A stretch of 64,000 bases of DNA from Gammaproteobacteria bacterium (GTDB taxonomy: Bacteria; Pseudomonadota; Gammaproteobacteria; HK1): NCBI GenBank assembly GCA_965221555.1, contig OZ244895.1:1294803-1358802 (forward strand), given 5' to 3'. How positions within the stretch are numbered: the stretch's first letter is position 1; the number at the start of each line of letters is the position of its first letter. A model generated the notes under the pieces. That model was given only the letters and a program-made list of their open reading frames with translations, had not been told where the DNA came from and did no database searches. Below are positions 10,699 to 62,857 of this stretch, in pieces. The position numbers and the translations under genes were made by a program.

Positions 10699-10883
10699 GC
10701 TAGCCCGCATGTTTCACCGATTTCCTACTGCGGACGCCAATATGCTCGCGTTAGCGGGGCGTACTCCCTCAAGCCGCAACGACTTCGTGTCGGCTACGCC
10801 TACAGCGTCTTTCGGTCCGTGCACCCCACTATCACGGCATCTTGGCGCCCTCGCTACGAAAATCGGTGAAACATGCGGGCTAG
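10699..10883 (+). repeat. MITE/REP-like element, copy A (185 bp), with a 24-bp perfect terminal inverted repeat
   Basis: The termini GCTAGCCCGCATGTTTCACCGATTT and AAATCGGTGAAACATGCGGGCTAG are exact reverse complements. The internal core GGACGCCAATATGCTCGC and later segments match copies at 41.5, 42.5, 51.8 and 62.7 kb. Confidence 0.85.
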
Positions 10884-10961
10884 GGCGCGCTTCGCGCGGT
10901 CGCCGCAATGTCATTCCCTCGGTCGGGGGAGTCCACCCCCGAGCGGGGGAGATGGCCAGCA

Positions 10962-12392
10962 TCAGGTGCTCGGGGCACACCGCGGCGTGGGCGCCCGGGT
11001 ATGCCAGTCGGTCGCGTTCTGGTACGCGTGACCGACTCGAAAGAGCGTCTCTTCGGCAAAGAGGGGCCCCATGAGCTGGAAAGCCGCGGGCAGGCCGTTC
11101 CCGGTGAAGCCGCAGGGCACGGTCAGGGCCGGGAGTCCCAGGTAGTTCGCGGGGCGCGTGCACCAGCTGATTCCGGCGATCGTGCTCGCCATCGCATCGC
11201 CCGCCGCGACATCCGTCTCCGCTCGGGTCGGAACCGGGAATGGCAGGACGGGGCTGTGCAGGACGTGCGCGTCGGCGAACACCGTGTCCCTGAACTCGCG
11301 CCGCGCGTCGCACCGCGCGCGCAGGGCCCTGAGGTAGCGGGCTGCCGGCAGGTGGAGGCCGGGTTCGTAGCGCTTGCGCACTTGCGCCTGGTAGTCATGC
11401 GGGCGCGCGGTGAGCCAGGGCTCGTGGAGGGCGGCGGCCTCGCAGGCGAACACGACGTTTGCGAGCTCGGTGAGGCGCCGCATGTCGGGAAGCGCGACCT
11501 CCACCGTCGCAGCCCCCGCCTCCCGGAGCACCGCGAGGCTGTCTTCCATGAGCGCGCGCACCTCGTCCGTGGCCAGATCGTAGAACCATTCCCGCGGCAC
11601 TCCGATGCGGATGCCGTCAAGCGTCTCCCCGAGCCCGGACTCGTAATCCGGGTCCGGGCGGCGGACGCTCGCGCTGTCGCACGGATCGTGCCCCGCCATC
11701 ACCTGCGTCATCCGCGCCACGTCGCGCACCGTGCGGCAGAGCGGTCCCACCGTGTCCATGGTGGGGGAGAGCTCCATGGTGCCGTGACGGCTGATCAGGC
11801 CCTCGCTCGGCTTGAGTCCCACGATGCCGCAGCAGGCCGCGGGCAGACGCACCGAGCCGCCGGTGTCGGAGCCGAGCGCCGCAAAGGCGATCCTCGCGCC
11901 TACCGCCGCCCCGGAGCCGCTCGACGACCCCCCCGGGACGTGATCCGGGCTCCAAGGATTGCGGCAGTCACCCCAGTGTTCGTTGTGGCCGGTCGGTCCG
12001 GTGGCGAACTCCGCCATGTTGAGCCCGCCGAGGGTGATCGCGCCGGCGCGCTCAAGTCGCGAGAGCGCGGTGCTGTCGTGGTCCGGCACGAAGTCGCGGA
12101 GGATCCGGGAGCCGCAGGTCGAAACCCGCCCGGCGCGGTAGAACATGTCCTTGTGCGCGATCGGCACCGCGTGCAGCGGCCCCGGCGCATTGCCACGCGC
12201 GAGCGCGGCGTCGGCTGCCGCCGCGTCCCTGAGCGCCCGCTCGGCTTCGAGCGAGATGAAACAGTTGAGCACCGGCTGCAGACGCTGCGCTCGGGCGAGG
12301 GTGGCTTCCATGACCTCGACCGCGCTCAGGTCCCGGCGGGCGAGCGCGTCCGCGAGCGCGGTCAGGCTCATCGCGAGGATTGCGTCGCTCAT
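10962..12392 (-). CDS. amidase (amidase-signature family)
   Basis: GGSSSGSGAAV/GSDTGGSVRLPA signature and the catalytic K...S...S pattern; 476 aa. Confidence 0.9.
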   Translation of the reverse strand: MSDAILAMSLTALADALARRDLSAVEVMEATLARAQRLQPVLNCFISLEAERALRDAAAADAALARGNAPGPLHAVPIAHKDMFYRAGRVSTCGSRILRDFVPDHDSTALSRLERAGAITLGGLNMAEFATGPTGHNEHWGDCRNPWSPDHVPGGSSSGSGAAVGARIAFAALGSDTGGSVRLPAACCGIVGLKPSEGLISRHGTMELSPTMDTVGPLCRTVRDVARMTQVMAGHDPCDSASVRRPDPDYESGLGETLDGIRIGVPREWFYDLATDEVRALMEDSLAVLREAGAATVEVALPDMRRLTELANVVFACEAAALHEPWLTARPHDYQAQVRKRYEPGLHLPAARYLRALRARCDARREFRDTVFADAHVLHSPVLPFPVPTRAETDVAAGDAMASTIAGISWCTRPANYLGLPALTVPCGFTGNGLPAAFQLMGPLFAEETLFRVGHAYQNATDWHTRAPTPRCAPST

Positions 12393-12525
12393 GGCGATGT
12401 CCGTCGAGCCCCCTCGGAACGGGATGGAAGCTGATGCCTTGCGCGCCCGATGCCGACTACCGGAGCGAAGTGGACGATGGCAGTATCCCTACTGGAGTGC
12501 GGCGGCACAATGAGAGGGACCCGCG

Positions 12526-12903
12526 ATGGGATACGTCCTCGCCCGGATAGAACTCTCCAACCCGAGGCGAGAGGACTCGACGCCTCTTGCCGTAACCGCG
12601 ATGGCCGATACCGGTGCGCTCATGCTGTGCATCCCCGCCAGGGTCGCCAGTCACCTCGATCTGGAGACCGAATCCATGCGGGACGTGTCGCTGGCGGATG
12701 GCAGAAGCCTGCGCGTGCCTTATGTGGGGCCGATCAGGGTCGCATACGAGAGTCGCTTCTGTTACGTCGGGGCGCTGGTGTTCGGTGACGAAGTGTTGCT
12801 GGGGGCCGTCCCCATGGAAGACATGGATCTGGTGGTCGATCCGAGCCGCGGAGAGCTCACCGTCGACCCGGCCAGCCCGGACCTTCCGCACGCCCGGGCC
12901 TGA
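12526..12903 (+). CDS. retropepsin-like (clan AA) aspartyl protease domain protein
   Basis: DTGA active-site motif (AMADTGALMLCIP) in a small single-domain protein of 125 aa. Confidence 0.65.
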   Translation: MGYVLARIELSNPRREDSTPLAVTAMADTGALMLCIPARVASHLDLETESMRDVSLADGRSLRVPYVGPIRVAYESRFCYVGALVFGDEVLLGAVPMEDMDLVVDPSRGELTVDPASPDLPHARA

Positions 12904-13126: not shown

Positions 13127-15340
13127 TTACCTGAGCGCCGCGTCGGCGCAGGAGCGAAACGCTTCGTCGGTCGCCACCGCGAGCTGTGCTCCGATCGACA
13201 GCTGGCCGTTGCCGTTCGCCCGACCGATCTGTCGAACCCGGGTGCCGTTGACCGAGAGCTCGGCTTCGACTTCCACTCCGCCGCCGTTCCGATGGTGGCA
13301 TAGCACATCGAAGCTCCAGCCCTCGCCGAGACGCTCGGTGAGTCGTACCACCAGATCTTCGATGGAGGGCGCGCCGGCGGGAGCTGAGGCCGGGGGCGGG
13401 CTCACCGCCCGCCCAGTGGAGTCGAGCGCCGCGGCCGGCCGATGTAATCCCGCGCCGCTGGCATGCGACGCGTCCGGGACACCCGCCGCGAGGGCCGGCC
13501 GTGGTTCCGGGGGCGCGCTGCCGCCAGGCCGGCCGGCCGTCGAGGAGCTCGAATCCCTCCCTTCTCCTCGCTTCGGATCGGAACGCATCCGCGAGCGCAG
13601 CGCCTCGGTGGCCCGCAGGTCGATGCTCTCGGTTTCGCGCTCCACTACCACCCCGTACGCCTGCCGGGCGTGCTCCACGGTGCAGAAGTCGTCGAGCACG
13701 TCTTCGAGCACCTGCTCGGGCGGCCGCTCCAGAGGATCGCCGTAGCCGCCGCCGCAGGGGGCGTAGACCGCCATCACGTCGCCTTCGGAGACCCGCAGCC
13801 CCGCGAACTTGGCCGGCATGTCCTGGATCTCGTCCGGGCGGGCGGCGTTGTAGATCTGGAGGGCGCCACACTGTCCGGGCGCACCGCCGAAGATGCCCCA
13901 GGGCACGTCGGTGTGGCGGTCGCACTCGTGGGTGATGAAGCCGCTGGTAAGTACCCGCTGCTTCTTGACCACGCCGATGCCGCCCCGGTAGCGCCCCGCA
14001 CCCGGCATCACGTCGTCCCGGAGCTCGTAGCGGTCGCAGATCATGGGGAGGTGGATGGCGAGGTCCTCGAGCGGATTGTTCCGGGTGTTGGCCATCAGAT
14101 TGTCGATGCTGTCGGGGCCGTCCGAGGCGGGCCTCCCTCCGTACGAGCCCTCGTTCACCTCCAGGAACACCCAGTACTCGCCGCTCGGCTTGACGCCGGA
14201 GTAGGCGGCGAAGGAGAGCGTCGCGGAGCTCCCGGCGATGATGTCGTTGGGCATCACCGGTGCGAGCGCCTTGTAGATCAGGTCGATGACGCGGTTTATC
14301 TGGGAGAATCGCGCCTCCGCCGCGGCGGGAAAACTCGGGTTGAAGATCGAGCCCTTGGGCGCGATGACCTCGATGGGGCGGAACGAGCCCTGGTTGGAAG
14401 GTACGTCTATCTCGCTCGTCTGCGCATCGAGGAGCAGGGATCGGATGGCACAGAAGCAGGCAACCTTGGTCGAACCCTCGAAAGGCACGTTGAAGCCGGT
14501 CTCGACCTGGTCCGCGGAGCCGGTGAGGTCGATCTCGATCCCGTCGCCCTTCACCCGCACGCAGACCTTGATGGGCAGGCGCACTTCGCGGTTTCGGCCG
14601 TCGTCGTCCAGCCATCCCTCGGCGCGGTACTCGCCGTCAGGTATCTCGGCGATACGCTGGCGCAGGACGCGCTCGGTGTAGTCCATGAGCTGGTGAGTGG
14701 CGGAGATCACCGTCTCCTTGCCGTAGCGGTCGAGCAGCTCCCCGAAGCGGCGCACCCCGAGGCGGGCGGAGGCGATCTGAGCGTCGAGGTCATCCTGGAG
14801 CTGGCGCGAGGCCCGGCTGTTCCTGCCGATGTACTCCCACAGCCCCTCGTTGCGCACGCCCCGTTCGTAGAGCTTGGTGCCCGCGAAGAGCATGCCCTCC
14901 GCGTACACGTCCGGTATGTCGATGATGAGGCCCGGGGTCGCCGCTCCGATGTCGAGGTGGTGCGCGGTGTTGGCCGAGAAGGCGACGAGCTCGCCTTCGT
15001 GGAACACGGGGATAACAATGGCGATGTCGGGGGAATGGCTGGATCCGTGGTACGGGTGGTTGTGGATGACCACGTCGCCCTCGTTCCAGACCCCGCCTTG
15101 CAGGGTGTCGCGGATACCTTCGAGGTATCCGGGAAGCGAGCCGATGTGAAGCGGTGTCGATTCCGACTCGCACAGGGTGTTGAAGTCGGTGTCGAAGAGT
15201 CCCGCTCCGAGGTCCTGAGACTCGCGGATGATCGAGGAGAAGGACATCCGGTAGAGGATGTGTCCCATCTCCTCCGCGATGGTATCGAGCGCTCCGCTTA
15301 TCACCTGCAGGGTGATGGGGTCGAGTTCCTGTCTGGCCAT
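13127..15340 (-). CDS. hyuB: hydantoinase B/oxoprolinase (HyuB-type) subunit carrying a roughly 150-aa C-terminal extension
   Basis: HyuB family motifs DPITLQVI and HNHPYHGSSH; 737 aa versus about 580 typical. The extra C-terminal domain follows a low-complexity linker. Confidence 0.9.
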   Translation of the reverse strand: MARQELDPITLQVISGALDTIAEEMGHILYRMSFSSIIRESQDLGAGLFDTDFNTLCESESTPLHIGSLPGYLEGIRDTLQGGVWNEGDVVIHNHPYHGSSHSPDIAIVIPVFHEGELVAFSANTAHHLDIGAATPGLIIDIPDVYAEGMLFAGTKLYERGVRNEGLWEYIGRNSRASRQLQDDLDAQIASARLGVRRFGELLDRYGKETVISATHQLMDYTERVLRQRIAEIPDGEYRAEGWLDDDGRNREVRLPIKVCVRVKGDGIEIDLTGSADQVETGFNVPFEGSTKVACFCAIRSLLLDAQTSEIDVPSNQGSFRPIEVIAPKGSIFNPSFPAAAEARFSQINRVIDLIYKALAPVMPNDIIAGSSATLSFAAYSGVKPSGEYWVFLEVNEGSYGGRPASDGPDSIDNLMANTRNNPLEDLAIHLPMICDRYELRDDVMPGAGRYRGGIGVVKKQRVLTSGFITHECDRHTDVPWGIFGGAPGQCGALQIYNAARPDEIQDMPAKFAGLRVSEGDVMAVYAPCGGGYGDPLERPPEQVLEDVLDDFCTVEHARQAYGVVVERETESIDLRATEALRSRMRSDPKRGEGRDSSSSTAGRPGGSAPPEPRPALAAGVPDASHASGAGLHRPAAALDSTGRAVSPPPASAPAGAPSIEDLVVRLTERLGEGWSFDVLCHHRNGGGVEVEAELSVNGTRVRQIGRANGNGQLSIGAQLAVATDEAFRSCADAALR

Positions 15341-15359
15341 GGCGGGATCTCCCGGCGGC

Positions 15360-17435
15360 TCAGTGGCCTTGCCGAATGAACAGGTTGCCGTGTGCGCCCA
15401 CCTCGCATTGATAGCGCGGCGGCACGAGAATCGTGGAGTTGTGCTGGATGAGGAGCGCGGGCCCCGGCACCCGGTGGCCGGCCTTGAGCTTCAACCGGTC
15501 GTAGCGCGGGGTGGAAACGCTCTCGCCGTCGTCGAAGGTGGTCTCGCGCGAGTACAGGTACGCCTCCTCGATCCCGAGTCCGTTCGCCGTCGCGAGCCTG
15601 GCCACCTCGAGCGGGGTCACCTCCTCGGTGCCGATGACCCGGATCGTGATGAGCTCGACCTCGCCGTCGTCGAAGGCGTAACCGTAATCCAGGCGGTGCT
15701 GGGCGTGGAAGCTCGCGATGATCTCGCGCACCGCCGCCACCCCGACTTCGCCGGGCGGGATCTCCGCGCGCAGCTCGAAGCCCTGGCCGTGGTAGCGACA
15801 CTCCGCGATGCGCTGGTAGCGCTGGCGTTGCGGGGGTACGCCGTCGTTCTCGAGGTCGCGGCGGCACTCCGCGACCAGCTCCGCGCTCAGCGCGTCGATG
15901 CGCCGTGCGCCGTCGGCGTCCGCGCGGGTGAGCGACATGATGAGGGAACGGGCGTGTTCGTACTGCATGTCGGTTTCGAGCAGGCCCATCGCCGCGGTGA
16001 TTCCGGGCGCGACCGGAACTATGACTTCCCGGGCTGACACCGCTTCGGCGAGCGCCACCCCGTGCAGGGGGCCGGCGCCCCCGAAGGGCACGAGCGAGAA
16101 CTCGCGGGGGTCGACGCCCCGGGCGACGGAGTTGGAGCGGATGGCAAGCGCCATGTTGGAGTTGATGACCCGGATGATTCCGAGCGCGGCTTCCCGTCGC
16201 GAAAGCCGGAGCGGCTTCGCGATCTTCTCCTCGATCGCACGTTCGGCGAGCGAGGGATCGATCGGCAGGTCACCGCCGAGCAGCTTGTCCGCATCGAGGC
16301 GCCCGAGCGCGACCTGGGCGTCGGTCACCGTCGGTTCCTCGCCGCCTCTGCCGTAGCAGGCGGGTCCGGGGTCGGCGCCGGCGGAGCGGGGGCCGACGTG
16401 GAATCCGCCCGCGGAGTCGATGTGGGCGATCGAGCCGCCGCCCGCGCCGATGGTGACCAGGTCGATCATCGGGACCAGGATCGGGTGGCCGCTCACGTAG
16501 GAGTCCCGCGGGTTCATGATCTTGATGCGCCCGTCGGGAATGGTGCTGATGTCGGCCGAGGTGCCGCCGATGTCGACGGTGATGAGGTTGTCGCTACCGC
16601 AGAGCAAGCCTTCGGAGCGGCCGCCGATGACCCCGCCCGCCGGACCCGACATCAGGATGCTCACCGCCCGCTTCGAGCAGGCCTCGATGGTGGAGATGCC
16701 TCCGTTCGACTGGATGAGGCGAAGCGCCGCGCCGAAGCCGTTGTCGGCAAGCTTCTTCTGCAGCCGGTGGAGGTACACGGTGGTCTTCGGGCCGATGAAC
16801 GCGTTCATCGCCGCGGTGGAGAAGCGTTCGAACTCCCGGATGACGTTGGCGACTTCGCTGGAGCAGCATACGTACACGCCGGGCATCTCCCGCTCGACGA
16901 TGGCCCGCGCCCGGCGCTCGTGGCTGTCGTTGATGAACGAGAAGAGGAAGCCGATTACCACCGACTCCACGCCGCGCCGCTTGAATACCTCGATGGCGTC
17001 GTGCACTTCGTCCTCGGCGAGCGCAGTCTCGATGCGCCCGTCCGGCGGGAGGATCCGCTCGGTGATCGGAATCCGGTTGCGGCGCTTGACCAGAGGTCGG
17101 TTCTGCCACGGCACTTCGAAGTGGAGCGAGAAGTTGTAGGGACGCTTGTGACGGCCGATGTGGAGGATGTCGCGAAAGTTCCGGGTGGTGAGCATGCCGA
17201 CTTCGGCGCCGTTGTGCTCGATGGTGATGTTGGTGGCCACGGTGGTTCCGTGGACGATGAGGTCGATGTCGCGGGGCGCGATCCCCGCCGTGTCGCAGAG
17301 CTCGCGCAGCCCCTGGAGCACCCCTTCGGACTGGTCGTGCGGAGTGCTCGGCACCTTGTGAAAGTGCACTCCGCGCGCCGACTCCAGCACCAGGTCGGTG
17401 TTGGTGCCCCCGACATCGACGCCGACCCGGTTCAT
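15360..17435 (-). CDS. hyuA: hydantoinase A/oxoprolinase (HyuA-type) subunit
   Basis: N-terminal MNRVGVDVGGTNTDLV. The ATG at 17435 overlaps the stop of the upstream gene (ATGA). Confidence 0.9.
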   Translation of the reverse strand: MNRVGVDVGGTNTDLVLESARGVHFHKVPSTPHDQSEGVLQGLRELCDTAGIAPRDIDLIVHGTTVATNITIEHNGAEVGMLTTRNFRDILHIGRHKRPYNFSLHFEVPWQNRPLVKRRNRIPITERILPPDGRIETALAEDEVHDAIEVFKRRGVESVVIGFLFSFINDSHERRARAIVEREMPGVYVCCSSEVANVIREFERFSTAAMNAFIGPKTTVYLHRLQKKLADNGFGAALRLIQSNGGISTIEACSKRAVSILMSGPAGGVIGGRSEGLLCGSDNLITVDIGGTSADISTIPDGRIKIMNPRDSYVSGHPILVPMIDLVTIGAGGGSIAHIDSAGGFHVGPRSAGADPGPACYGRGGEEPTVTDAQVALGRLDADKLLGGDLPIDPSLAERAIEEKIAKPLRLSRREAALGIIRVINSNMALAIRSNSVARGVDPREFSLVPFGGAGPLHGVALAEAVSAREVIVPVAPGITAAMGLLETDMQYEHARSLIMSLTRADADGARRIDALSAELVAECRRDLENDGVPPQRQRYQRIAECRYHGQGFELRAEIPPGEVGVAAVREIIASFHAQHRLDYGYAFDDGEVELITIRVIGTEEVTPLEVARLATANGLGIEEAYLYSRETTFDDGESVSTPRYDRLKLKAGHRVPGPALLIQHNSTILVPPRYQCEVGAHGNLFIRQGH

Positions 17436-18130
17436 GGATCGTTGGGACTCCGGTTCTCTAGAAGCAGATCGTCGAGGTAGGAAAGCACATTGGACAGCGG
17501 CTCGACGTCGCCGAATTTGGCGTCCATGTCGAAGAGATTCCATTCCACGAGGCCGGGTCCCCGATCGCCCACGCCCTCGCGCACCACGATCGGGCGGAAG
17601 CCCTCCGCGATCGCGTCCTCGCAGGTGTTGCGAACGCAGGCCGAGCAGGTCACCCCGGTCAGCAGCACGGTATCCACGTTGGCGGCGCGCAGGAAGCCCG
17701 CGAGCCAGGTTCCGTGAAAGGCGCTCGCGCGCTTCTTGACGATCACCTGCTCGTCGGCAAGCGGCGCCACCCGCTCGTCGATCGCGACCGCGTCACTGCC
17801 GGCCTGGAGCGCTTCGGCCGGGATCTTGAGGTGCCAGAGTCCCGCATCGGAGTTCGGTCCGGTCACGACGTTGTAGGCGGTGGTGGTGTACACGATGGGG
17901 ATCCGCTTGGCGCGCGCCGCCTTCAGCAGCGCCTGCACCGCGGGAATGATGGTGTCCATGCCCTCGCAGGAGAAGGCATGACCGGGACGGGTCCAGGCGT
18001 TGGCGAGATCGATGTTGATGAGGGCGGGGCGGGCGCCGTAGCCGACCCGGCGTCTGAATCCCCGGCCCGCGTAGATGTCCGAATCCGCCGCAAAGAGCGT
18101 CTCGAGGGCGCTTTTCAGGTCTTCATTCAT
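17432..18130 (-). CDS. isochorismatase-family cysteine hydrolase (N-carbamoylsarcosine amidase-like)
   Basis: Isochorismatase fold motifs with the catalytic Cys in VTCSACVRNT; 232 aa. Its stop overlaps the hyuA start. Confidence 0.8.
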   Translation of the reverse strand: MNEDLKSALETLFAADSDIYAGRGFRRRVGYGARPALINIDLANAWTRPGHAFSCEGMDTIIPAVQALLKAARAKRIPIVYTTTAYNVVTGPNSDAGLWHLKIPAEALQAGSDAVAIDERVAPLADEQVIVKKRASAFHGTWLAGFLRAANVDTVLLTGVTCSACVRNTCEDAIAEGFRPIVVREGVGDRGPGLVEWNLFDMDAKFGDVEPLSNVLSYLDDLLLENRSPNDP

Positions 18131-25267: not shown

Positions 25268-25443
25268 GCTCTCGTCCTCGTATTATGCGATTGCCGGGGG
25301 TGAGCGGAGTCCCCGGCCACCGCGAGACCGGCCGCCATGTTTCACCGGATGACGAAGCGAGGGCGTGCGGATGTCGGCAACTGCGCGTTCGCGACCCCGA
25401 GCCGGTGAAGCGCGGCGCCCGCGCAAGCTCGCCGGAGCGCGCC

Positions 25444-42123: not shown

Positions 42124-42147
42124 CGTCGCCGTCCCCCGGCCACATCC

Positions 42148-42393: not shown

Positions 42394-42512
42394 CGGGCCC
42401 TCGCAGACGACGCAGCGGTTTATGGTGCTTCCCCTTGAATGTGGCTCGCACCGGCGGCCGTGCCCGGAAGGCGCAACGCGGGCTGCGGTGACCGAAGGGT
42501 ACGCGATGGTGG

Positions 42513-44346: not shown

Positions 44347-44495
44347 GGTCAGCCTTCAGTCGTCATGTCTCGCCAATTCACCGCCGCGAGCGCACATCCG
44401 CCGGCATGTGCGGCGTTGCGGGTGCGCCTTCGCTTCGCGGGTTGGTGAAACATGGCGGCTGACGCTCGAGCTCCGGGCGGAATGTGGTGGCGGAT

Positions 44496-46121
44496 CTAGG
44501 GGACCGGATGCGCAGCGCGCGCGCCGCGCTCGCGCAGGAACTCGTTCAGTACCCGCCCGGTGTGGGAACGGCGGGTGCGGCGGGCGACCTGGGCGGGCGA
44601 ACCGCTCGCGACGACGCGCCCGCCGCCGCCGCCGCCTTCGGGGCCGAGATCGATGACGTGGTCCGCCTCCGCGATGACGTCGAGATTGTGCTCGATGACC
44701 ACCACCGTGTTGCCGGCATCGACGAGGCGATGGAGGACTTCGACGAGCTTCGCGACATCGGCCATGTGCAGGCCGATGGTGGGCTCGTCCAGCACGTAGA
44801 GGGAGTGTCCGTCTCGTTTCGGGGCGGCTTTGCCCTTGCTGTTCCGGGTGCTCACGCGCACCGGATCCGCGGGCCGCGTCTTCGCGAGCTCGGTGACGAG
44901 CTTGATGCGCTGCGCTTCGCCGCCGCTCAGGGTGGGACTCGGCTGGCCGAGGCAGAGGTAGCCGAGCCCGACATCCTGCAGGAGGCGAAGCGAGTGGTGC
45001 ACGGAGCGGTGCGCGGCGAAGAACTCGACCGCCTGGTCCACGTTCATCGCGAGGATGTCGGCAATGCTCCGATCGCGGAAGGATACCGACAGGGTCTCGG
45101 GATTGAAGCGGGCTCCCCCGCAGGCGTCGCAGGCGACCCTCACGTCGGGGAGGAAGCTCATCGCGATGCGGCGCATCCCCTGTCCTTCGCAGACCCCGCA
45201 TCGTCCCTCGCTCACATTGAACGAGAAACGTCCCGGCCCGTAGCCCCGAATGCGACTCTCGGTGGTTTCGGCGAAGAGGCGCCGAATGTGATCCATCACC
45301 CCGACGTAGGTGGCGGGGCAGGAGCGGGGTGTCTTTCCGATCGGGGTCTGGTCGACTTCCAGTACTCGCGAGACCCCTTCCCACCCGCTGAGCTCCCGGC
45401 ATCCCCGCAGGGGCGGGAGACGGCTTCCCCGGCGCCGGCGGGCGCCCAGGCGCCGGGCGAGGTTGTCGAGGAGCACCGCGCGCACCAGGGAGCTCTTCCC
45501 GCTGCCGCTCACTCCGGTCACGCAGGTCATCCGTGCGAGCGGAAAGCGCACGGTCAGGCCGTCGAGGTTGTTGAGGTCGGCGCCCGCGATCTGGATCTCG
45601 CCGTTCTCTGCGTTTCCGCCGGAGCCGTTGCGCGTCCGCCTCGCGTGGCGCAGCGGTTCGGCGAGAAAGCGCCCGGTCACCGAACGCGGGTCCTCGAGCA
45701 GCTCCTCGACACTGCCCGCGGCGACCACCTGACCTCCGTTGCGGCCCGCGCCGGGCCCCAGGTCGATGACGTGCTCGGCCTGCCGGATGGTCTCCTCGTC
45801 GTGCTCCACCACGACCACCGTATTCCCCTTCTTCTCCAGGTGTCGCAGGGTATCGAGCAGCATCCGGTTGTCGCGGGTGTGCAGGCCGATGGTGGGCTCG
45901 TCGAGGATGTAGCACACGCCGCGCAGGTTGGAGCCGAGCGATGCGGCGAGGCGGATGCGCTGCGCCTCGCCCCCGCTCAGGGTCGGTGCGGCGCGGTCGA
46001 GGGTGAGGTACCCGAGTCCGACCTGGCGCAGGAAATGCAGGCGCGAGCGGAGTTCACTCTGGATGTCGCGCGCGATCGCTTCCTCTCGGGGAGAGAGCTC
46101 CACCGCATCCAGGAAGCGTTT
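44496..46121 (-). pseudogene. continuation of the same UvrA-like gene in the -1 frame (C-terminal ABC module of the second unit)
   Basis: The frame becomes UvrA-like exactly where the other frame fails: RFLDAVELSPREEAIARDIQSELRSRLHFLRQVGLGYLTLDR...LSGGEAQRIRLA...GVSGSGKSSLV...LSGGEAQRIKLV...VIEHNLDVI. A 1-nt indel in a GCAAAC run near 46119-46121 would restore a single roughly 1,890-aa ORF. Confidence 0.7.
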
Positions 46122-49100: not shown

Positions 49101-50170
49101 CCTTCGATCACGAAGCGGCGGTGGCGCGCCGCGAGACGCCCCCAGGGGCGGTCCGTCGGCACTTCGCGCTCGCGCGCGTAGCGCATCAGGTCGCGCTGAC
49201 AGGAGCGGTAGCTCTTGCTCTGCCAGACCTTGATCGCGCCCTCCGCGAGGCTGAGGCGCGGGTCCGGAATGACGAGGTCGTAGTCGATATCCATGGTGCG
49301 GCCGAAACCGCGACAGGTCTCGCAGGCGCCGACCGGAGAGTTGAAGGAGAAGAGGTTGGGGACCGGGTCCTCGTAGCGCTCGCCGCACTCAGGGCAGGCG
49401 AGCGCGCTCGAATAGTCCCGGGCCTCGACCGCTTCGCCGTCTGAGTCGAGGAGATGCACGCGAAGTGTCCCCTGGCCTCGCCGCAGTGCCGCCTCGAGCG
49501 CCTCGGCGATGCGCCCGCGGTTCGCGGGAGTGAGGCGCACCCGATCCTGGACGACTTCGAGGCGGTCGCGTTCCCGTCGGTGGATGCGCGCGTAACCCTG
49601 GCGGGCGAGCAGATGTTCAATCTCCCGCGGGCTGAAGTTCTCCGGCACGCGCAGGGTGAAGGTGATGGCGATGCGCGGTGGCGACTCGCCGGCGCCGAAA
49701 CGCCGGAGCAGGTCTTCGATGATGCTGTCGGGGGAGTCCCGGCGGATCGCGTCGCCGCAGCCCTGGCAGTAGAGGAGCGAGGCGCGCGCGAAGAGCAGCT
49801 TGAGGTGATCGTTCAGCTCCGTCATGGTGCCCACGGTGGAGCGCGAAGTGCGCACCGGGTTGGTCTGATCGATCGCGATGGCAGGCGGGATCCCCTCGAT
49901 GGCGTCGCAGCTCGGCCGGTCCATGCGGTCCAGAAACTGGCGCGCATAGGGAGAGAAAGTCTCCACGTAGCGGCGCTGCCCCTCCGAGTACACGGTGTCG
50001 AAGGCGAGCGAGGACTTGCCCGAACCGCTCACGCCGGTAATCACCGTCAGCTCATTGAGCGGCAGACGCAGGTCCAGGTTCTTGAGGTTGTTCTGCCGGG
50101 CGCCCCGGATGTGGATGAACCCGGGCGAGGGTCCGGCGCGGCGCGGCGCCTGCGCTCCCGGATCGTTCAT
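46119..50170 (-). CDS. UvrA-like ABC ATPase, tandem-duplicated type: complete first UvrA-like unit plus the start of a second unit, up to a frameshift
   Basis: Starts MNDPGAQAP...IHIRGARQNNLKNLDL with Walker A TGVSGSGKSSLAFDT. Two ABC modules and Zn-finger CxxC pairs are present. A second unit then begins ISVHGAREHNLKNIDLDIP...TGVSGSGKSTVAFD. The frame degenerates into junk after ...ELTALSVEDA. Confidence 0.8.
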
Positions 50171-51414
50171 CGGGAACGGGAAGGATCCGAGGTGTCGCCC
50201 CGCTCCAGCACTTCGAGGCGCAGCAGGTCGAGCAGGCTGATGGTCGCGTACTGGCGTACGCGAACGCGGTCTCCGGGCAGGTGCACCTGCTCGTGGCGGG
50301 ACCCGTTCGGGGTGGCGATGGCGAGGTGAACGGTGCCGCGCGCCTCCTCCTCCCGCGACGCGGCAAACGCATTCGCGAGCCCGATGTCCGCCGCGAAGCG
50401 GGCGCGGGCAGCCTGCGCGAGCTCGTGCACCGCGGCCGGGCCCACCACGCCGCGCGCGCCCACGGCCTTCGCCGCCTCGTCGTTGGGGATGACGAGAACG
50501 CCCGCGAGCACCTCCTCGACCCCGCGCACCGCGCACAGCCGCGCGCTCATCAGGCCACCGGTCGCGCCCTCGGCAAGCGCCAGGCGCTGGCCCCGCCCCG
50601 CGAGCATCGCGACGACGGTGGACTCCATGTTGTCGTCGTCGACCGCGAACACGATCCGGCCGAGTCGTTCGCGCAGCCGCTCCTCCTCCTGCCCAAGCAG
50701 GCGCTCGGCCGCTTCCGTGTCTTCCGCCTTGGCGGTGATGCGTACCTTGATGCCCTCGACGCCGCTCGCGAGGAAGGCGAGCGTCGGGTTGCCGATGCGG
50801 TCGAGCTGCGCGATGCGATCGGCGAGCGTCTCCGCGAGTCCGGACTCGCTCTCGCCCCAGGTGCGCAGCACCCGGCTCCTGATCACCGCGCGCAGGCCTG
50901 CGCGGCGGCGCAGGTCGGCGCGAATGGTGCCGTCGAACATCTCGCGCAGCTCGTAGGGCACTCCCGGCACCGCGTAGATCACCCGCTCGCCCACCGGGCA
51001 GACAAGCCCGGGGGCGGTGCCCGGCATCTGGTCGATGATCGCGGCGCCCGCGGGAACGTCGGCCTGGCGCAGGTTGTTCTCCGGCATTCGGCGCCCTCGG
51101 GCGGCGAAGCGCGCCCGGATACGCTCTCCGATTCCGGGGTGGCGCTCAAGCTCCACCCCCATGACCTCCGCGATCGCCTCGCGGGTGATGTCGTCCTGGG
51201 TCGGGCCGAGTCCGCCGCAGACGATCACCGCCTCGCTGCGCGAGAGCGCCAGGCGCAGGCTCGCCACGATCCGTTCGTGGTTGTCGCCGACCTTGGTCTG
51301 GAAGTGCGAGTCGATGCCGGCGAGCGCGAGCTGCTCGCCGAGCCAGGAAGAGTTCGTATCGACGATCTGACCGAGCAGCAGCTCGGTGCCGATCGCCACC
51401 ACCTCACAGCGCAT
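50167..51414 (-). CDS. cinA: CinA-family competence/damage-inducible protein (MoCF-binding N-domain plus PncC-like NMN deamidase C-domain)
   Basis: N-terminal MRCEVVAIGTELLLGQIVDTNSSWL and GGLGPTQDD, with a C-terminal CinA domain. Its stop overlaps the uvrA-like start (ATGA). Confidence 0.9.
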   Translation of the reverse strand: MRCEVVAIGTELLLGQIVDTNSSWLGEQLALAGIDSHFQTKVGDNHERIVASLRLALSRSEAVIVCGGLGPTQDDITREAIAEVMGVELERHPGIGERIRARFAARGRRMPENNLRQADVPAGAAIIDQMPGTAPGLVCPVGERVIYAVPGVPYELREMFDGTIRADLRRRAGLRAVIRSRVLRTWGESESGLAETLADRIAQLDRIGNPTLAFLASGVEGIKVRITAKAEDTEAAERLLGQEEERLRERLGRIVFAVDDDNMESTVVAMLAGRGQRLALAEGATGGLMSARLCAVRGVEEVLAGVLVIPNDEAAKAVGARGVVGPAAVHELAQAARARFAADIGLANAFAASREEEARGTVHLAIATPNGSRHEQVHLPGDRVRVRQYATISLLDLLRLEVLERGDTSDPSRSR

Positions 51415-51689: not shown

Positions 51690-51905
51690 CCGCTTGCCGA
51701 CAAGGCACTTTGGCCGCTGACCGAGATATCTGCCCGACACTCGTCGCGAAGGCGCCTGGATGCCGTGGTGGTGGACCGCACGGAATCGACAGACGCGCAA
51801 TGCGTAGCCGAATACTACGCCGTACGGCCTCATGCGGGAGTACGACCCGCAACCGCGAGCAGGTTGGCGTCCACCCGCCGAGAAATCGTTGAGACATCGC
51901 AGCTG
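51690..51905 (-). repeat. MITE/REP-like element, copy E (degenerate, minus orientation)
   Basis: The reverse complement contains ATGTCTCAACGATTTCTCGGCGGGTGGACGCCAACCTGCTCGCGGTTGCGGG and ATTGCGCGTCTGTCGATTCCGTGCGG...CACGGCATCCAGGCGCC, matching copies A and C. Confidence 0.7.
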
Positions 51906-51912
51906 GGCGCGC

Positions 51913-56093: not shown

Positions 56094-56190
56094 GCCTTCG
56101 GATAGCCGCGGATGTGGCCACAAGGACTCCAGAATGACGGGGATTCGATCGGCCATGACTTCCGGGCCGAGGTTGTTACGGGATAGGCAC

Positions 56191-57420: not shown

Positions 57421-57540
57421 GAGGCGCCCTTCGTAGCCCGCTCCGGCCCCCGTTCCGACCAGCCCGGAAATCCCGCTGATTCTCGACCGCTTCGGGCGCG
57501 CAGATGCGCACAGGAGCGAGGGCGGGCGCGAACCGATGCG

Positions 57541-58494
57541 TCACCCGGGACGCACTTCCTCCGCGAAGCGCAGCACTTCCCGGGCCAGGCGCAGCTTGTC
57601 GGGCTCGCCATGCATCAGGGTCGCCGTCACCCGGCAGGGCACCGCAATGCGATCCGCCTCCACCGCGTCGGCCTCGTCGAGCACGTAGGCGTCGATGAGT
57701 CCGGCGTAGTGCGCGGCGATCGCCGCCGCGGCGACCGGCAGGCCCGCCTCGCGCATCATCTTGGCGGTCGGACCCTTGACCGAATCGCCTCCCACGATGG
57801 GGGAGACCGCGATTACCGGCGCGGAGGCGGCGCGCAGCGCTTCCCTCACTCCCGGCAGAGCCAGGATGGGATCGACGCTGATGAAGGGATTGGACGGGCA
57901 GATGACGATTGCGCCGGTGTCGGGGTGGACTACGTCGCGCATCCACTCTCCTTGCGGACGGGCAGCCTCGACTCCGGCGAAGCGCAAACCCCGCACCGCT
58001 GGCACGCAGCGGCGCTCGACGAACCAGCGCTGGAATTCGAGCTCCCCTTCGGGGGTTCGGACCATGGTGCGCACGGGCTGGTCGGACATCGGGAGCAGAC
58101 GAGGGGCGACGTCGAGACGGCGGCAGAAGTCGGCGGTGATCGCGCTCAAGCTCTCTCCCGCGGCGAGGCGGCGGGTGCGCTCCACGTGGGTGGCGAGATC
58201 TCCGTCGCCGAGCCGGAACCACGATTCGCCGCCCAGCCGTTCGAGCGCGGCCATGAAGCTCCAGGTCTCGCCCGCGCGGCCCCATCCGGCTTCGAGGTTG
58301 GCGAGCCCCGCCAGGGTGTACATGAGGGTGTCGAGGTCGGGCGAGATGCGAAGACCGAGGTGCTCGAAGTCGTCGCCGGTGTTGGCGACGATGACGAGTC
58401 GATCGCCTCGAACCAGTCGCGAGAGCCCGAGCGCGAGCTTCGCGCCGCCGATCCCGCCCGAGAGGGCCACCACTTTTAAACCGTGCTCCGTCAT
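57541..58494 (-). CDS. cofD: 2-phospho-L-lactate transferase CofD (F420 biosynthesis)
   Basis: N-terminal KVVALSGGIGGAKLALGL plus CofD/UPF0052 family features; 317 aa. Confidence 0.85.
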   Translation of the reverse strand: MTEHGLKVVALSGGIGGAKLALGLSRLVRGDRLVIVANTGDDFEHLGLRISPDLDTLMYTLAGLANLEAGWGRAGETWSFMAALERLGGESWFRLGDGDLATHVERTRRLAAGESLSAITADFCRRLDVAPRLLPMSDQPVRTMVRTPEGELEFQRWFVERRCVPAVRGLRFAGVEAARPQGEWMRDVVHPDTGAIVICPSNPFISVDPILALPGVREALRAASAPVIAVSPIVGGDSVKGPTAKMMREAGLPVAAAAIAAHYAGLIDAYVLDEADAVEADRIAVPCRVTATLMHGEPDKLRLAREVLRFAEEVRPG

Positions 58495-59270
58495 CGGCGA
58501 AAGAGGTCCAGCTCACGGGCGCGCAGCAACGCCTGCGCGGAGGTGGGCTCGCCCTGCCAGCGCGCGCCATGCACCACCGCGAAGGGCAGCGCCTCGTCCC
58601 CTTCGCCCATCACCAGGGCGGCGGCGGCGGCGAGCGAGTCGGCGAGTCCGGTCAGACTCACCTCCAGGGGCCGGCCGTAGAGGTCCGGCCGGCCCCGGAG
58701 ATCTTCGAGCGCGGGCAGTCCGGCACAACCGAGAGCGATCCCGACGGTTCCCGTTCGCCAGGGCCGTCCGACGCTGTCGCTCATCACGGTGGCCACGTCC
58801 ACCGCGAAGTGGCGATCGAAGACGTGCTTCAGCTCCTCGCAGACCGCGTCCGGATCCTCGGGCAGGAGGAGCACGCGCTCGCGTTCGTGCGTGTGCCGGA
58901 TGTTGGAGCGATCCACTCCGGCGTTCGCCATGACGTGGCCACTGCGGTGCTCGGCCACGATGAGATTGGGCCCGTGCGCCACCACCTCCTTGGATTCCGA
59001 GAGGATGATCTCGACGAGTCTCGGGTCCTTGCCGGTGACCTCGGCCAGCGCACGAGCCCGCGCCGAGGGAGGGTGCTCGTCGAGGTACGCGTAGCGGCCC
59101 TGCGCTTTGGAGACGATCTTCTGGGCGATCACCGCGACGTCTCCACTGCGCAGGACGATGCCGGCCCCGTCGAGTGCCGCCGGCAGGATCCCCCCAAGGT
59201 CGTCCCCCGGCTCCACCATCGGCACCCCCGGCACCGCGCGGACCCTCAGGGTGCGCGGCTTGGGGTCCAT
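58491..59270 (-). CDS. cofE: coenzyme F420-0:L-glutamate ligase CofE
   Basis: CofE-like motifs GDVAVIAQKIVSKAQGR and ANAGVDRSN; its stop overlaps the cofD start. Confidence 0.85.
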   Translation of the reverse strand: MDPKPRTLRVRAVPGVPMVEPGDDLGGILPAALDGAGIVLRSGDVAVIAQKIVSKAQGRYAYLDEHPPSARARALAEVTGKDPRLVEIILSESKEVVAHGPNLIVAEHRSGHVMANAGVDRSNIRHTHERERVLLLPEDPDAVCEELKHVFDRHFAVDVATVMSDSVGRPWRTGTVGIALGCAGLPALEDLRGRPDLYGRPLEVSLTGLADSLAAAAALVMGEGDEALPFAVVHGARWQGEPTSAQALLRARELDLFRR

Positions 59271-59303
59271 GCCGCTGCGATCACTCTCGTTTCTCGAGCC
59301 GTT

Positions 59304-61803
59304 TCACCGGAGCGGGCGCTTCGCGATCGCGTCCCGCGAGGCCTCGGGCGCGCTTCCCGGGCGCAGGAGAGGGCGCCGCTCCCGACCCCGCTCGTAGCGC
59401 CGCGCCGCGGGTGTCTTCACCACTTCGCGCAGTGCCGATGCCGCAAGCGAGGCCCGGTAACGCTCCGCGGGCGCGCTCGCGTACAGGGTGGTGCGTTGCC
59501 TCGGACTCCGGCCGATGGACCTTGCCAGCGCCTCCATGCGTTCCGGCGCCATCTCTTCGCCGTGGGAGGCCCCGGCGGCGCGGGTGATGCTCTCGTTCAT
59601 GAGGGTACCGCCGAGATCGTTCGCGCCCGCCTCGAGGCAGGTGCGGGCCCCCTCCGGACCCATCTTGACCCAGGAGGTCTGGATGTTGGTGATGTGCGGG
59701 TCGAGCGCCAGGCGCGCCACCGCGTGCATGAGCACCGCTTCGCGGAAGGTCGGCCCTCGGCGCGCCCGGCCCCTGAGGTAGAGCGGGGCTTCCATGTGCA
59801 CGAAGGCGAGCGGGACGAACTCGGTGAACCCCCCGGTACGCTCCTGCAGTGCGCGTACCCGCAGCAGATGCCGGGCCCAGCTCCGGGTGTCGTCGACGTG
59901 GCCGAACATGATCGTTGCGGTCGAGCGCAGACCGGCGCGGTGCGCCGCTTCCATGACTTCGAGCCACTGGCCGGTTCTGATCTTGTCCGGGCACAGTACG
60001 GCGCGGACCTCGTCGTCGAGGATCTCCGCCGCGGTTCCGGGCAGGGAGCCGAGCCCCGCCCGCCGGAGGCGTCCGATATAGGTATCGAGATCGAGACCCA
60101 GCGTCGCCGCCCCCTGCCACACTTCCAGCGGCGAGAAGGCATGGACGTGGATGCCGGGCGCCGCCTGTTTCACGGTGCGGCAGATGTCGAGGTAGGTCTC
60201 ACCCGTATATTCGGGATGGATGCCGCCCTGCATGCACACCTCGGTGGCGCCGCGCATCCAGGCCTCTTCGCTCCGTCTTGCGATCTCCTCGTGCGCGAGG
60301 TCGTAGGGGCGTCCCCGCAGGTTCTCGCTCAGCTTGCCCTTGGAGAACGCACAGAACCCGCACTTGAAGTAGCACACATTGGTGTAGTTGATGTTGCGGG
60401 TGACGACGTAGCTGACCTCGTCACCGTTTCGTCGCACACGCAGGGCGTCGGCGGCCTCGCACACCCGCGCGAAGTCGGGGCCGCGGGCCTCGAAGAGGCG
60501 CATGACCCTTGCCTCGTCCAGTGCCTCGCCGTCTGCGAGACGCGCCAGGATCTCCGCAACTCCGCTTTGCCGGGCCGGCATGTGATCGCGCCGTACCCAC
60601 CCGTTCGCGGGGCTGGCCGTATCGCCCGCGCTCCACGGTGTGTCGCGGACGAAGCCGGAGGCATCGATGCGGTCGAGCACCGGAGCATGAAACACGGGGT
60701 CGAGCCAGTGCGCCCGGTCCCGGCAGTATTCGGGATACACCGCGAGGCGCTCTACCAGTTCCCGGCCCGCGGCGTTGGTCTCGCGTTCGAGATCCGCGAG
60801 GTGCGGCCAGGGCGCCTCCGGGTTCACATGGTCGGGAGTGACCGGGGAGACCCCGCCCCAGTCGTTGATTCCGGCGTCGACGAGGGCGCTGAGGGCGCCG
60901 GGCCGCAGATTGGGCGGCGCCTGCACGCTCATGCTCGGTCCGAAGACCAGGCGCGCCATTGCGATGCTCCAGCAGTGCTCGTCGAGGGACGGCTCGGATG
61001 CCCCGGCCATCAGCGTGCCCGGCTTGGCCCGGAAATTCTGGACGATGATCTCCTGGATGTGGCCGTATCGCTCGTGTACCGCGCGGATCGCGAGCAGCGC
61101 CTCGACGCGCTCACGCCTCGTTTCGCCGATGCCGATGAGGATGCCGGTCGTGAAGGGCACCGCCGCCTCTCCCGCCGCGCGCAGCGTTTTCATGCGCCGC
61201 TGCCCTTCCTTGTCGGGCGAGCCGTAGTGCGGGCCACCCTTGCGGCAGAGTCGTTCCGAAAGGGACTCCACCATGATCCCGGACGAGACCGATACGCGGC
61301 GGAAACGCTCGAGAGCGTCCACGCTCATCAGCCCGGGGTTCAGGTGGGGCAGGAGGCCGGTGCGTTCGAACACCAGCCGGGCCATCGCTTCCAGGTAGGA
61401 AAGGGTGGAGTCGTAGCCGAGCCGGGCGAGTGCGTCGCGGGCGGCGCGGTAACGGTCCTCGGGGCGGTCGCCGAGGGTGAAGAGGGCCTCCTGACATCCG
61501 GCCGCGGCTCCCGCCTGCGCGATCTGAAGCACTTGCTCCGGAAGGAGATAGGGTGCGTCGAGCCGACGCGGGGTCTGCGCGAAGGTGCAGTAGTGACACA
61601 CATCGCGGCACAGCCGGGTGAGGGGGATGAACACCTTGCGGGAATAGCTCACCCGGCCGGGATGGGCGAGATCCCGCGTGGTGCGCGCCGCGCCGCTCAG
61701 AGTCTCGAGCGGGACTTGTTCCGCGAGGGTCAGGAGCCAGTCGTCCGAGAGCCGCTCTCCCTCGGCTGCGCGCGCGAGCGCGCGCTCGGTGCTGTCTCGC
61801 ATT
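59304..61803 (-). CDS. fbiC: FO synthase (fused CofG/CofH radical-SAM protein, FbiC)
   Basis: Two radical-SAM cysteine triads (CRDVCHYCTF and CYFKCGFCAF) in one roughly 830-aa polypeptide. The internal ATG MRDSTERAL was preferred to the GTG of the table ORF. Coordinates are accurate to about 2 nt. Confidence 0.85.
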
Positions 61804-61923
61804 TTCGACTTCTTCCCCGGCCCAAAAAGCTCTCGGGCTGCGGCAGAATAGGCTCTCCCGCCCGAGTGGGAGAGCACTATATCCGCCCGGACAGGAATTT
61901 CGTAGCGCGCGGGAGGGAGGCCC

Positions 61924-62616
61924 TTGGACATCAGAATCCTGGACGACGCGCCCGCGGTGGCGCGAGCGGCGGCGTGCTTCCTGGTCGAGGCGGGAGGCCG
62001 GGCGATCGCCGCCCGGGGACGCTTCTCGCTTGCCCTGAGCGGGGGTTCCACGCCCTGGCGGATGCTCCGACACCTCGAGCCGGAAGACCTTCCCTGGGAA
62101 CGGGTCGACATCTTCCAGGTCGACGAACGGGTCGCGCCCGCGGGAAGCGATGAGCGCAATCTCACTCATCTGGAGTCGAGCCTCGTCGACCGAGTGCCCA
62201 TTCCTCCGACGCGGGTAAACGCGATGCCGGTGGAAGCGGAAGACCTCGAGCGTGCGGCGAGCGATTATGCGGCGCGACTCGCCGCGCGCACCGGCGAGCC
62301 CGCGACCCTCGACGTGGTGCATCTCGGGGTGGGCGACGACGGCCATACCGCCTCGCTGGTGCCGGGCGATCCGGTGCTCGACGTCACCGGAGCCGACGTC
62401 GCGCTTGCCGTCGCGCCCTACCAGGGGCGGCGACGCATGACGCTCACCCTTCCGGCGCTCAATCGGGCGCGCACCGTGCTGTGGCTGCTCACCGGCGCGG
62501 GCAAGGCGCGGATGCTGCGCCGACTGCGCGATGGCGATGCGGGCATTCCGGCGGGCCGGGTGGCGCGTCGCCACGCGGTGGTGTTCACCGACCGCGACGC
62601 CGCCGCGCTGCTGTAG
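61924..62616 (+). CDS. pgl: 6-phosphogluconolactonase
   Basis: Glucosamine-6-P isomerase/6PGL fold motifs (LALSGGSTP, DERNLTHLES, HLGVGDDGHTASL). Confidence 0.8.
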   Translation: MDIRILDDAPAVARAAACFLVEAGGRAIAARGRFSLALSGGSTPWRMLRHLEPEDLPWERVDIFQVDERVAPAGSDERNLTHLESSLVDRVPIPPTRVNAMPVEAEDLERAASDYAARLAARTGEPATLDVVHLGVGDDGHTASLVPGDPVLDVTGADVALAVAPYQGRRRMTLTLPALNRARTVLWLLTGAGKARMLRRLRDGDAGIPAGRVARRHAVVFTDRDAAALL

Positions 62617-62674
62617 GCGAGCCAGGTCGCGGATGGATCACGAATCGCCGGGCGGTGGGCATGTCCATGGGCTG

Positions 62675-62857
62675 AACCCGAAGATTTCACCGATTTCTCA
62701 ACTCGCGGACGCCAATATGCTCGCTGTTGCGAGCCTCCCTCCCTCAAGCCGCTTCGCCTGTTTCCGGCTCGCCGTTGCGCGTCTTTCAGTCCGTGCTTCC
62801 TGCTATCACGGCATCGTGGCGCCCGAAGCGGCCGAAAATCGGTGAAATCTTCGGGTC
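62675..62857 (+). repeat. MITE/REP-like element, copy C (183 bp) with a 22-bp perfect terminal inverted repeat
   Basis: The termini ACCCGAAGATTTCACCGATTTTC and GAAAATCGGTGAAATCTTCGGGT are exact reverse complements. The interior is collinear with copy A (CGGACGCCAATATGCTCGC...TCCCTCAAGCCGC...GCGTCTTTCAGTCCGTGC...CTATCACGGCATC). Confidence 0.85.

Follow-up and report, generated by a model that had tools for sequence, protein, structure and literature searches.

The question raised by this locus is what a set of five similar segments, dispersed between genes in 64,000 nucleotides of gammaproteobacterial DNA, represents and how the segments came to be there. The stretch (contig OZ244895.1 of assembly GCA_965221555.1, positions 1,294,803 to 1,358,802; hereafter the window, in which all positions below are numbered unless another contig is named) has a G+C content of 67.8%, and a preliminary description made from its sequence had pointed out the five repeats and their inverted-repeat ends. 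We conclude that they are a previously undescribed family of non-coding bacterial transposable elements of the miniature inverted-repeat type (MITEs) that insert at CTAG and CTAA sites. The account that best explains the data as a whole, and that we consider highly probable, is of a MITE family that is moved in trans, duplicates a CTAR target, has undergone a recent burst and carries a covarying hairpin. MITEs of this kind are ordinary and well known, and the family is notable chiefly for a well-preserved, covarying hairpin that spans the full length of the element.

The repeat family

The canonical element is 176 bp long and has terminal inverted repeats of about 20 bp with the form CCCG-variable-TCACCGATTT, and element boundaries were set by these inverted repeats. 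Seven copies from at least four genomes have a core of exactly 176 bp, and the remaining cores measure 174, 179 (two copies), 182, 263 and 307 bp. At each end there is a fixed CCCG tip followed by about six freely varying bases, the conserved inner block TCACCGATTT, and then GCGGACGCCAA or TTGGCGCCC; the latter two are the most conserved blocks of the element and they pair with one another. A fixed tip for catalysis and an inner conserved block for binding is the usual layout of insertion sequence (IS) ends. The terminal repeats have 0–2 mismatches in nine of eleven copies, and the terminal-repeat pattern occurs seven times in the window where 0.43 occurrences are expected, which excludes chance.

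All five copies are recovered as mutually similar by both blastn and nhmmer (E-values 1e-13 to 1e-54). They lie where the preliminary description had placed them and the shared collinear interior that it noted is visible in the alignment, although the exact cores differ (e.g. 51721–51902, about 30 nt shorter than the 51690–51905 given previously). Copy A (10700–10883, + strand) has a canonical 176-bp core at 10704–10879, between CTAG at 10700–10703 and CTAG at 10880–10883. Its terminal repeats are perfect (20/20; CCCGCATGTTTCACCGATTT), and it is situated between the stop of an amidase gene and the start of a phosphoenolpyruvate (PEP) mutase-like gene, both on the - strand. Copy E (62673–62859, + strand) has a core at 62677–62855 and belongs to a 179-bp subfamily; it also has perfect terminal repeats (CCCGAAGATTTCACCGATTT), is flanked imperfectly by TGAA and TCAA, and lies between pgl and a gene of the Ldh2 family. 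The ends that had been described as perfect inverted repeats are indeed so at these two copies (starting at 10699 and 62675), extending over 24 and 21 nt with flank bases included and over 20 of 20 positions in the element proper. Copy D (51717–51906, - strand) is a short variant with a core of 182 bp (51721–51902) between a polysaccharide-deacetylase stop and cinA; its degenerate terminal repeats mismatch at 9 of 20 positions, and its flanks, CCAG and TCAG in element orientation, are imperfect.

The other two copies form a long variant. Copy B (41479–41749, - strand; core 41483–41745, 263 bp) has CTGA on both sides in element orientation, with the 5′ duplication overlapping the crcB stop codon (TGA), and its terminal repeats are degenerate. 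Copy C has the same additional apical segment of approximately 85 nt, and copy E matches the 3′ half of copy B at 89% identity. Copy C (42513–42772, + strand; 3′ end at approximately 42772) has an intact 5′ end (CCCGCGATTTTCACCGATTT) starting at 42513, and its 3′ terminal repeat is missing or degenerate beside the kef stop at 42790; nhmmer covers only positions 7–148 of the hidden Markov model. The two copies have GGCCGGGCAAGCCATCC in common. A longer variant with an extra GGCC(C/G)GGGCAAGCCATCC segment had been noted before and does exist, but as the pair at 41470 (B) and 42513 (C); the copy at 51690, which had been included in it, is of the short type. Each of the five lies between genes, and these flanking genes are the ones named previously: those for the amidase, a protein of the PEP-mutase/isocitrate-lyase family, CrcB, a Kef-type antiporter, CinA, a polysaccharide-deacetylase-family protein, 6-phosphogluconolactonase and an Ldh2-family dehydrogenase.

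The elements are small and have no coding capacity, with no conserved start codon and a predominance of compensatory changes, and the copies are dispersed in unrelated, mostly intergenic contexts. One frame is open in most copies merely by composition, and we have rejected the interpretation that it is a real gene. There is no Rfam (Rfam 15) match at the gathering score in the whole window, and at E ≤ 10 over two element regions there are only chance-level matches. Neither promoter-like nor terminator-like sites were found in copies A and E, the two that were scanned. No transposase domain was found by a Pfam scan of 49 candidate open reading frames (ORFs) that cover most of the window, and two ORFs tried within the 52.7–56.1 kb stretch (in 53.1–55.8 kb) have no Pfam match. 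This agrees with the earlier statement that the window has no recognizable transposase, and the repeats are, as had been proposed, intergenic mobile repeats rather than a transposase-encoding IS; nor are they fragments of a known non-coding RNA. Searching the literature by element sequence matched only unrelated primers, and no paper prints these sequences. A plasmid or phage origin was rejected, with no blastn match in 72,556 plasmids and no exact matches to the ends in viral contigs.

Target-site duplications

The flanks of 14 copies with defined boundaries were analyzed. In nine of these there are identical 4-mers on both sides: CTAG/CTAG in six, CTAA/CTAA in two, and CTGA/CTGA in one. A search for target-site duplications had been proposed in the preliminary description, and these are of that type; the CTAA/CTAA and CTGA/CTGA pairs are direct and not inverted, which rules out the 4-mers as an extension of the stem. 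CTAG is self-complementary and cannot by itself separate the two models. The outermost GCTAG of copy A, previously regarded as part of its inverted repeat, is instead the 4-bp target, CTAG, in duplicate. We also considered an IS630-like duplication of only the 2-bp TA inside a CTAG target, but the fourth base is A on both sides of the CTAA copies and only a 4-bp duplication fits.

CTAG is present only seven times and CTAA three times in the whole 64-kb window (a joint frequency of 1.6e-4 per site), and two of the seven CTAG sites are those flanking copy A. Ten further copies are known as spurious ORFs only (see below), and in these the codon following Gly-Leu starts with G or A, consistent with GGG-CTA-G/A. 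Several duplications fall on the stop codon of the gene upstream, as with the TAA of nusA and the TGA of crcB; this would follow if, at high G+C, CTAR were found almost solely in stop codons and intergenic DNA. The family yields a clean logo of the 4-bp target (CTAR) from a genome that has hardly any such sites.

The probable mechanism is that a transposase encoded elsewhere in the genome would move the elements in trans, making a staggered 4-bp cut at CTAR (occasionally CTGA) such that the 4-bp target is duplicated on either side of the insertion. With CTAR both scarce in a 68% GC genome and containing stop codons, the surviving insertions would be intergenic and often at the stop of the upstream gene. 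The duplication made by IS5 is 4 bp long and has the motif YTAR (PMC5009759), and that made by MITEPsy1, which is 100 nt and derives from ISPsy2 of the IS5 family, is CTAG or YTAA (PMC3189936). The CTAG and CTAA flanks are 4-bp duplications at YTAR sites of this type, and as CTAR duplication is an IS5-type target signature, the partner would most likely be an IS5-group element; judged from the target alone, we put the chances that an IS5-type transposase is the mobilizing partner at about even.

A conserved and covarying hairpin

The two halves of the element are complementary and either strand folds into a rod-like hairpin. Single copies fold as a long imperfect rod with a small three-way tip (z of -6 to -13 as RNA and -7 as DNA); for copy A, z is -10.8 for the + strand and -13.1 for the - strand. 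Covariation, a test of which had also been proposed, was evaluated in an alignment of the eleven short-variant copies, which has a consensus structure of 54 pairs and 92.7% of cells paired. At 28 of the 54 pairs there is at least one sequence in which both sides have changed and pairing is kept. Column shuffles give 9.3 ± 2.2 such pairs (none of 500 attains 28), and sliding the partner by 1–3 columns gives 4–8. It is the terminal helix that covaries most (15 of 20 pairs), but the interior helix does so too (9 of 23), and the most divergent copy, which is 57–73% identical to the others, keeps 35 of 43 interior and 18 of 21 terminal Watson-Crick pairs. Mismatches between terminal repeats average 1.7 within copies and 5.4 between copies (permutation P < 1e-5), and the within-copy matching holds inside a single genome, where positions 5–8 read CATG, GATG or AAGA. 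The previous observation that the outermost bases differ between copies yet remain complementary within each is therefore real and extends over the whole rod, although part of it is the palindromic CTAG duplication.

Repeats and fold are both gone from the copies that are evidently older. These are the copies at 41483–41745 (B), whose fold is no better than shuffles (z = -1.27), 51721–51902 (D), with 9 of 20 terminal-repeat positions mismatched, and that starting at 42513 (C), which lacks its 3′ end. Since old resident copies decay, pairing is maintained along proliferating lineages and not at each locus, which argues against a locus-by-locus host function. Compensatory changes preserve pairing in those lineages that are still proliferating, with resident copies decaying once inserted; either pairing is needed for propagation, we infer, or it is regenerated during propagation by quasi-palindrome template switching. 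Selection on a hairpin, to which the compensatory changes had been attributed, is thus compatible with the 28 doubly changed pairs, but with the decay of old copies it is not the sole explanation. Diverged subfamilies that keep full-length pairing through many double substitutions provide material for distinguishing selected from regenerated pairing.

The strand complementary to the orientation used in the preliminary description folds better in ten of the eleven copies (alignment fold of -87 versus -56 kcal/mol), because several conserved A-C mismatches are G-U pairs on the other strand. Wobble pairs, counted over the union of both predicted structures, also favor the complementary strand by 60 to 32 cells and by 21 to 14 columns, a bias that is not significant by column and that reflects approximately six versus two shared ancestral positions. 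These features are suggestive of a strand-specific RNA or single-stranded DNA form without establishing one. The orientation of insertions relative to transcription is mixed, and the better-folding strand is in the mRNA at only two of eight unambiguous sites.

Copies in other contigs and genomes

Copies are also present outside the window, among them some in further uncultured Gammaproteobacteria. An exact scan of a genome collection with an 18-mer from the conserved core identified 31 loci, 29 of which are chance matches without similarity to the family; twelve 18-mer matches in viral contigs are likewise chance matches lacking family similarity. Full-length copies are present in two contigs (L003 and L024) of one metagenome-assembled genome (MAG) labeled Ectothiorhodospiraceae, with flanks unrelated to the window. 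A metagenome scan yielded two more copies. Contig L032, which overlaps the right end of the window with 100% identity and continues past it, has two further copies within 10 kb. Besides L003 and L024, the loci of other genomes that have copies in unrelated flanks are L033, L035, L048, L050, L051 and L054.

Using an alignment of translations of the open frame of the element as a protein query, we found 19 predicted 'proteins', which are in fact ORFs mis-called across other copies. We note that these spurious proteins, which are 19 entries (P0001–P0019) in a public protein collection, share the motif LAR(I/M)(S/F)H…ADAN(L/M)LA…GRTPSSRFDVVSATPS…GE.SGL, and that two are fused to real domains. Four loci derived from these ORFs include a canonical copy, designated N, in a 4.77-Mb circular contig (ERZ25072258), and the ORF-derived loci also contain one 5′ half copy and one internally deleted copy of 110 bp in a MAG labeled Gammaproteobacteria. 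In contig L049, also among these loci and from the same assembly as L032, a canonical 176-bp copy (9996–10171) is positioned exactly between the nusA stop and infB; the nusA TAA forms part of its CTAA duplication, and the nusA-infB operon is essential and normally compact. There is also a half copy in L049 beside an apparent tRNA gene at 7632–7700. Low-coverage assemblies are broken by the elements, and position 1 of L032 falls inside copy E. The family is thus of relevance for annotation, as the elements both break assemblies and yield spurious hypothetical proteins.

A recent burst in the focal genome

Eight loci from relatives were fetched by way of the window Kef and Ldh2 proteins (orthologues 83–91% identical), one of which is a near-duplicate and is not counted. 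In the approximately 150 kb over these seven loci there is a single copy, which is a 307-bp variant. The focal genome has seven copies in 74 kb (the window together with its L032 extension), or about one per 10 kb, and at this density some 14 copies would be expected in the relatives (Poisson P ~1e-5). Among the focal copies, A and those designated F and M are 90–93% mutually identical, and the E/G and D types are 60–75% identical to them. For the sampled DNA, this difference in density indicates a recent lineage-specific burst in the focal genome, involving several subfamilies. The burst post-dates the split from relatives with 83–91% protein identity, and it represents a dated natural MITE amplification in an uncultured soil gammaproteobacterium. 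If the density holds over the 3.85-Mb contig, there would be approximately 350 copies constituting about 1.5% of the genome.

The orthologous crcB, cinA and pgl-Ldh2 intergenic regions of the relatives do not have the element. At the copy B site (41479–41749), which in the window is between crcB and a gene of 347 aa, L052 (14560–14913) and L059 (16215–16469) instead contain 255–354 bp with a small called ORF of 68–101 amino acids (aa). The arrival of copy B may have been accompanied by loss of this small ORF, or the relatives may have gained it.

Alternative explanations

Several observations count against a MITE family mobilized in trans by a transposase with a 4-bp CTAR signature. The flanks are not identical in five of the 14 copies, of which D, G and the long variant Q have degenerate repeats, H has one repeat mismatch, and E has perfect repeats. 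Two of the non-identical flank pairs differ at one base and two at more. The DNA of the relatives at the crcB, cinA and pgl-Ldh2 sites is different or rearranged, and no clean empty site was obtained. The CCCG ends are unlike those of ISPsy2 and MITEPsy1 (GGAAGGTCTGAAAAAGCC; GGAAGGT…), the only IS5-like ends compared, and an autonomous element with matching ends was not found in the window, near the L055 transposases, in plasmids or in viral contigs. Lastly, there is no obvious reason why a DDE transposase acting on double-stranded ends should keep the interior, or repeat positions 5–10, complementary. One way to account for such pairing is that the covariation is a mutational by-product, with the arms of a quasi-palindrome co-evolving by intrastrand template switching or heteroduplex repair; the element would still be a MITE. 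Copy A aligns to its own reverse complement with 70% identity over its whole length, as for a fold-back origin, and the repeats of young copies match perfectly even at the freely varying positions 5–8, where a transposase that tolerates variation would not select for matched repeats. The weak strand bias of the wobble-type mismatches, not significant by column, also agrees with it. However, eight transition-type mismatches (G-T or A-C) are present in many copies, five of them in most copies across genomes, and efficient homogenization should have erased these; old resident copies lose pairing, and the 136 nt between the terminal arms is a long distance for template switching. We consider this explanation possible but unlikely. 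Less likely still is that the rod-like fold is itself the unit of selection, in which a DDE-type 4-bp CTAR signature would be combined with a REPIN-like co-evolution of the arms (REPINs being hairpin-forming pairs of repetitive extragenic palindromic, or REP, sequences). The element would then have to fold as a single strand, preferentially the complementary one with G-U or G-T pairs completing the stem, in order to be mobilized, replicated or tolerated. Were this so, the family could show directly how MITE proliferation is governed by secondary structure, or what becomes of hundreds of inserted double-stranded RNA-like stems in essential operons such as nusA-infB.

It seems quite improbable that the repeats are primarily a structured RNA with a host function (e.g. 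an mRNA stabilizer, an RNase III processing site or an operon insulator) for which mobility is secondary. The folds are very stable and covariation is strong, the better folding of the reverse strand is through G-U pairs, and copies lie inside operons (amidase/PEP mutase, nusA/infB and pgl/Ldh2) where transcription must include them; RNase III cleavage at paired Correia repeats and RNase E effects of enterobacterial repetitive intergenic consensus (ERIC) sequences are also documented (PMC10969869). Against this are the mixed orientation, with the better-folding strand rarely in the mRNA, the relatives that lack the element at orthologous positions, the decay of resident copies, the lack of an Rfam family and of promoter- or terminator-like sites in the two copies scanned, and the target duplications, which show arrival by transposition. 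A REPIN-like or IS200/IS605-like element, mobilized as a single strand by a Y1 or REP-associated tyrosine transposase (RAYT) that recognizes the hairpin, is very improbable. Hairpin co-evolution of REPIN arms was reportedly described by Bertels and Rainey in 2011, and the co-evolution here resembles it; the modest single-strand wobble bias in cells points the same way. But Y1 transposases of the IS200/IS605 and RAYT mechanisms are not known to make 4-bp direct target duplications, and these are present here; moreover, a 176-bp unit with 20-bp repeats and a three-way tip does not resemble paired 20–40-nt REP palindromes, and no Y1_Tnp domain was found in the window ORFs scanned. A MITE family moved in trans remains the explanation that we favor.

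Relics and other features of the window

Besides the five copies there are three or four short relics. One at 7099–7226 (- strand) is the 3′ half of an element (7103–7226; nhmmer E = 0.003), broken by about 60 nt of unrelated sequence, and its end ACGCCATGTTTCACCGATTC abuts CTAA at 7099–7102. A second at 25331–25377 (- strand) is the 3′ terminal ~45 nt (…CGCTTCGTCATCCGGTGAAACATGGCGGC), identified by blastn and with an nhmmer E of 0.05. A third is a mini-element of approximately 98 bp (44362–44459, strand unassigned) with imperfect terminal repeats of the 'GCCGCCATGTTTCACC' flavor, read directly from the sequence. It lies between the stop of a UvrA-like gene (CTAG at 44496) and the kef start, within 116 bp (44356–44471) that are absent from relatives L052 and L059. 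The same end flavor recurs at 25331–25365, and the mini-element may represent a sister MITE family using the same transposase. A possible fourth relic at 57463–57507 (- strand) corresponds to the 3′ terminal 45 nt of the E-type subfamily; the match is weak (34 of 45 positions) and was not recovered by nhmmer.

A degenerate sixth copy had been suspected at 40170–40350, but nhmmer, run without filters, gives no match to this segment at E ≤ 1, the segment has neither a terminal repeat nor a fold (z = 0.09), and we do not regard it as a member of the family. The overlapping segment at 40235–40418 consists of about 185 bp between genes that L052 and L059 lack; it is unlike the MITE in sequence and has neither a terminal repeat nor a significant fold.

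Several other features of the window are of note. In the region at 41746–42440, Rfam matches no fluoride riboswitch at crcB, permissive thresholds included; directly upstream of this gene is a conserved small ORF of 81 aa, with counterparts of 86–110 aa in relatives. A UvrA-like giant ATP-binding cassette (ABC) protein is encoded at 44496–50536 (- strand) but is split into overlapping ORFs (45977–50536 and 44496–46664), whereas in relatives it is a single ORF of 1889–1920 aa (L052 4195–9957 and L059 4289–9958); the split could reflect a frameshift, a pseudogene or a sequencing error. A 935-aa ORF with an SPFH/Band-7 domain (30597–33404) contains six copies of a repeat with a period of 87 bp (29 codons) at 31505–32478, which are 62–73% identical. 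There are two diverged pairs of hydantoinase/oxoprolinase A and B genes in opposite orientations (13127–17543, - strand, and 26108–30233, + strand), and they are the source of I3, I4, I8 and I14, long-range inverted repeats in the repeat scan. Beside pgl there is an F420 biosynthesis cluster (57541–62165, - strand) encoding CofD, the F420-0:gamma-glutamyl ligase CofE and a 953-aa radical S-adenosylmethionine CofG/CofH-like ORF, with further F420-related genes (CofC) just past the window in L032.

Comparison with known systems

The preliminary description had likened the repeats to REP sequences and the bacterial interspersed mosaic elements (BIMEs) that they form, or to Correia-like MITEs, and its view of them as a mobile, hairpin-forming, non-autonomous repeat is correct in outline, although the comparison with REP/BIMEs fails. 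As with REPINs and REP/BIMEs, the elements are intergenic, very numerous and hairpin-forming, with arms that stay complementary. REP units, however, are 20–40 nt, have no target duplication and are tied to RAYTs. The unit here is 176 bp and has 4-bp duplications, and on these two grounds REP/BIME/REPIN and IS200/IS605-type elements are both rejected as families.

Correia elements have a TA target duplication, a site for integration host factor (IHF), and 26-bp repeats of a Neisseria consensus. The present repeats were rejected as Correia elements since the duplication is of 4 bp (CTAR) and not TA. Correia (Neisseria) and ERIC (enterobacteria) sequences are 100–160 bp intergenic MITE-like repeats that are co-transcribed and form long RNase-cleavable hairpins (PMC10969869). 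The family resembles both as abundant intergenic MITE-like repeats that fold into long hairpins, but the hosts are different, there is no sequence similarity, and there is no Rfam or literature match.

The similarity to IS5 is in the 4-bp duplication, which is 5′-YTAR-3′ in IS5 (PMC5009759) and CTAG, CTAA or, once, CTGA here. IS5, however, is autonomous, is 1.2 kb long and has a DDE transposase, and the present copies have neither an associated transposase nor IS5-like ends. MITEPsy1 of Pseudomonas syringae, derived from ISPsy2, is likewise small and non-coding, with terminal repeats of ~18–20 nt, a 4-bp CTAG/YTAA duplication and mobilization in trans (PMC3189936). It has a known parent IS and its mobility has been shown experimentally, whereas mobility of the present family is inferred. 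MITEPsy1 is 100 nt long with GGAAGGTCTGAAAAAGCC ends that have no similarity to CCCG…TCACCGATTT, and the element described here differs from it further in its length of 176 bp and in its conserved, covarying hairpin, which extends over the full length of the element.

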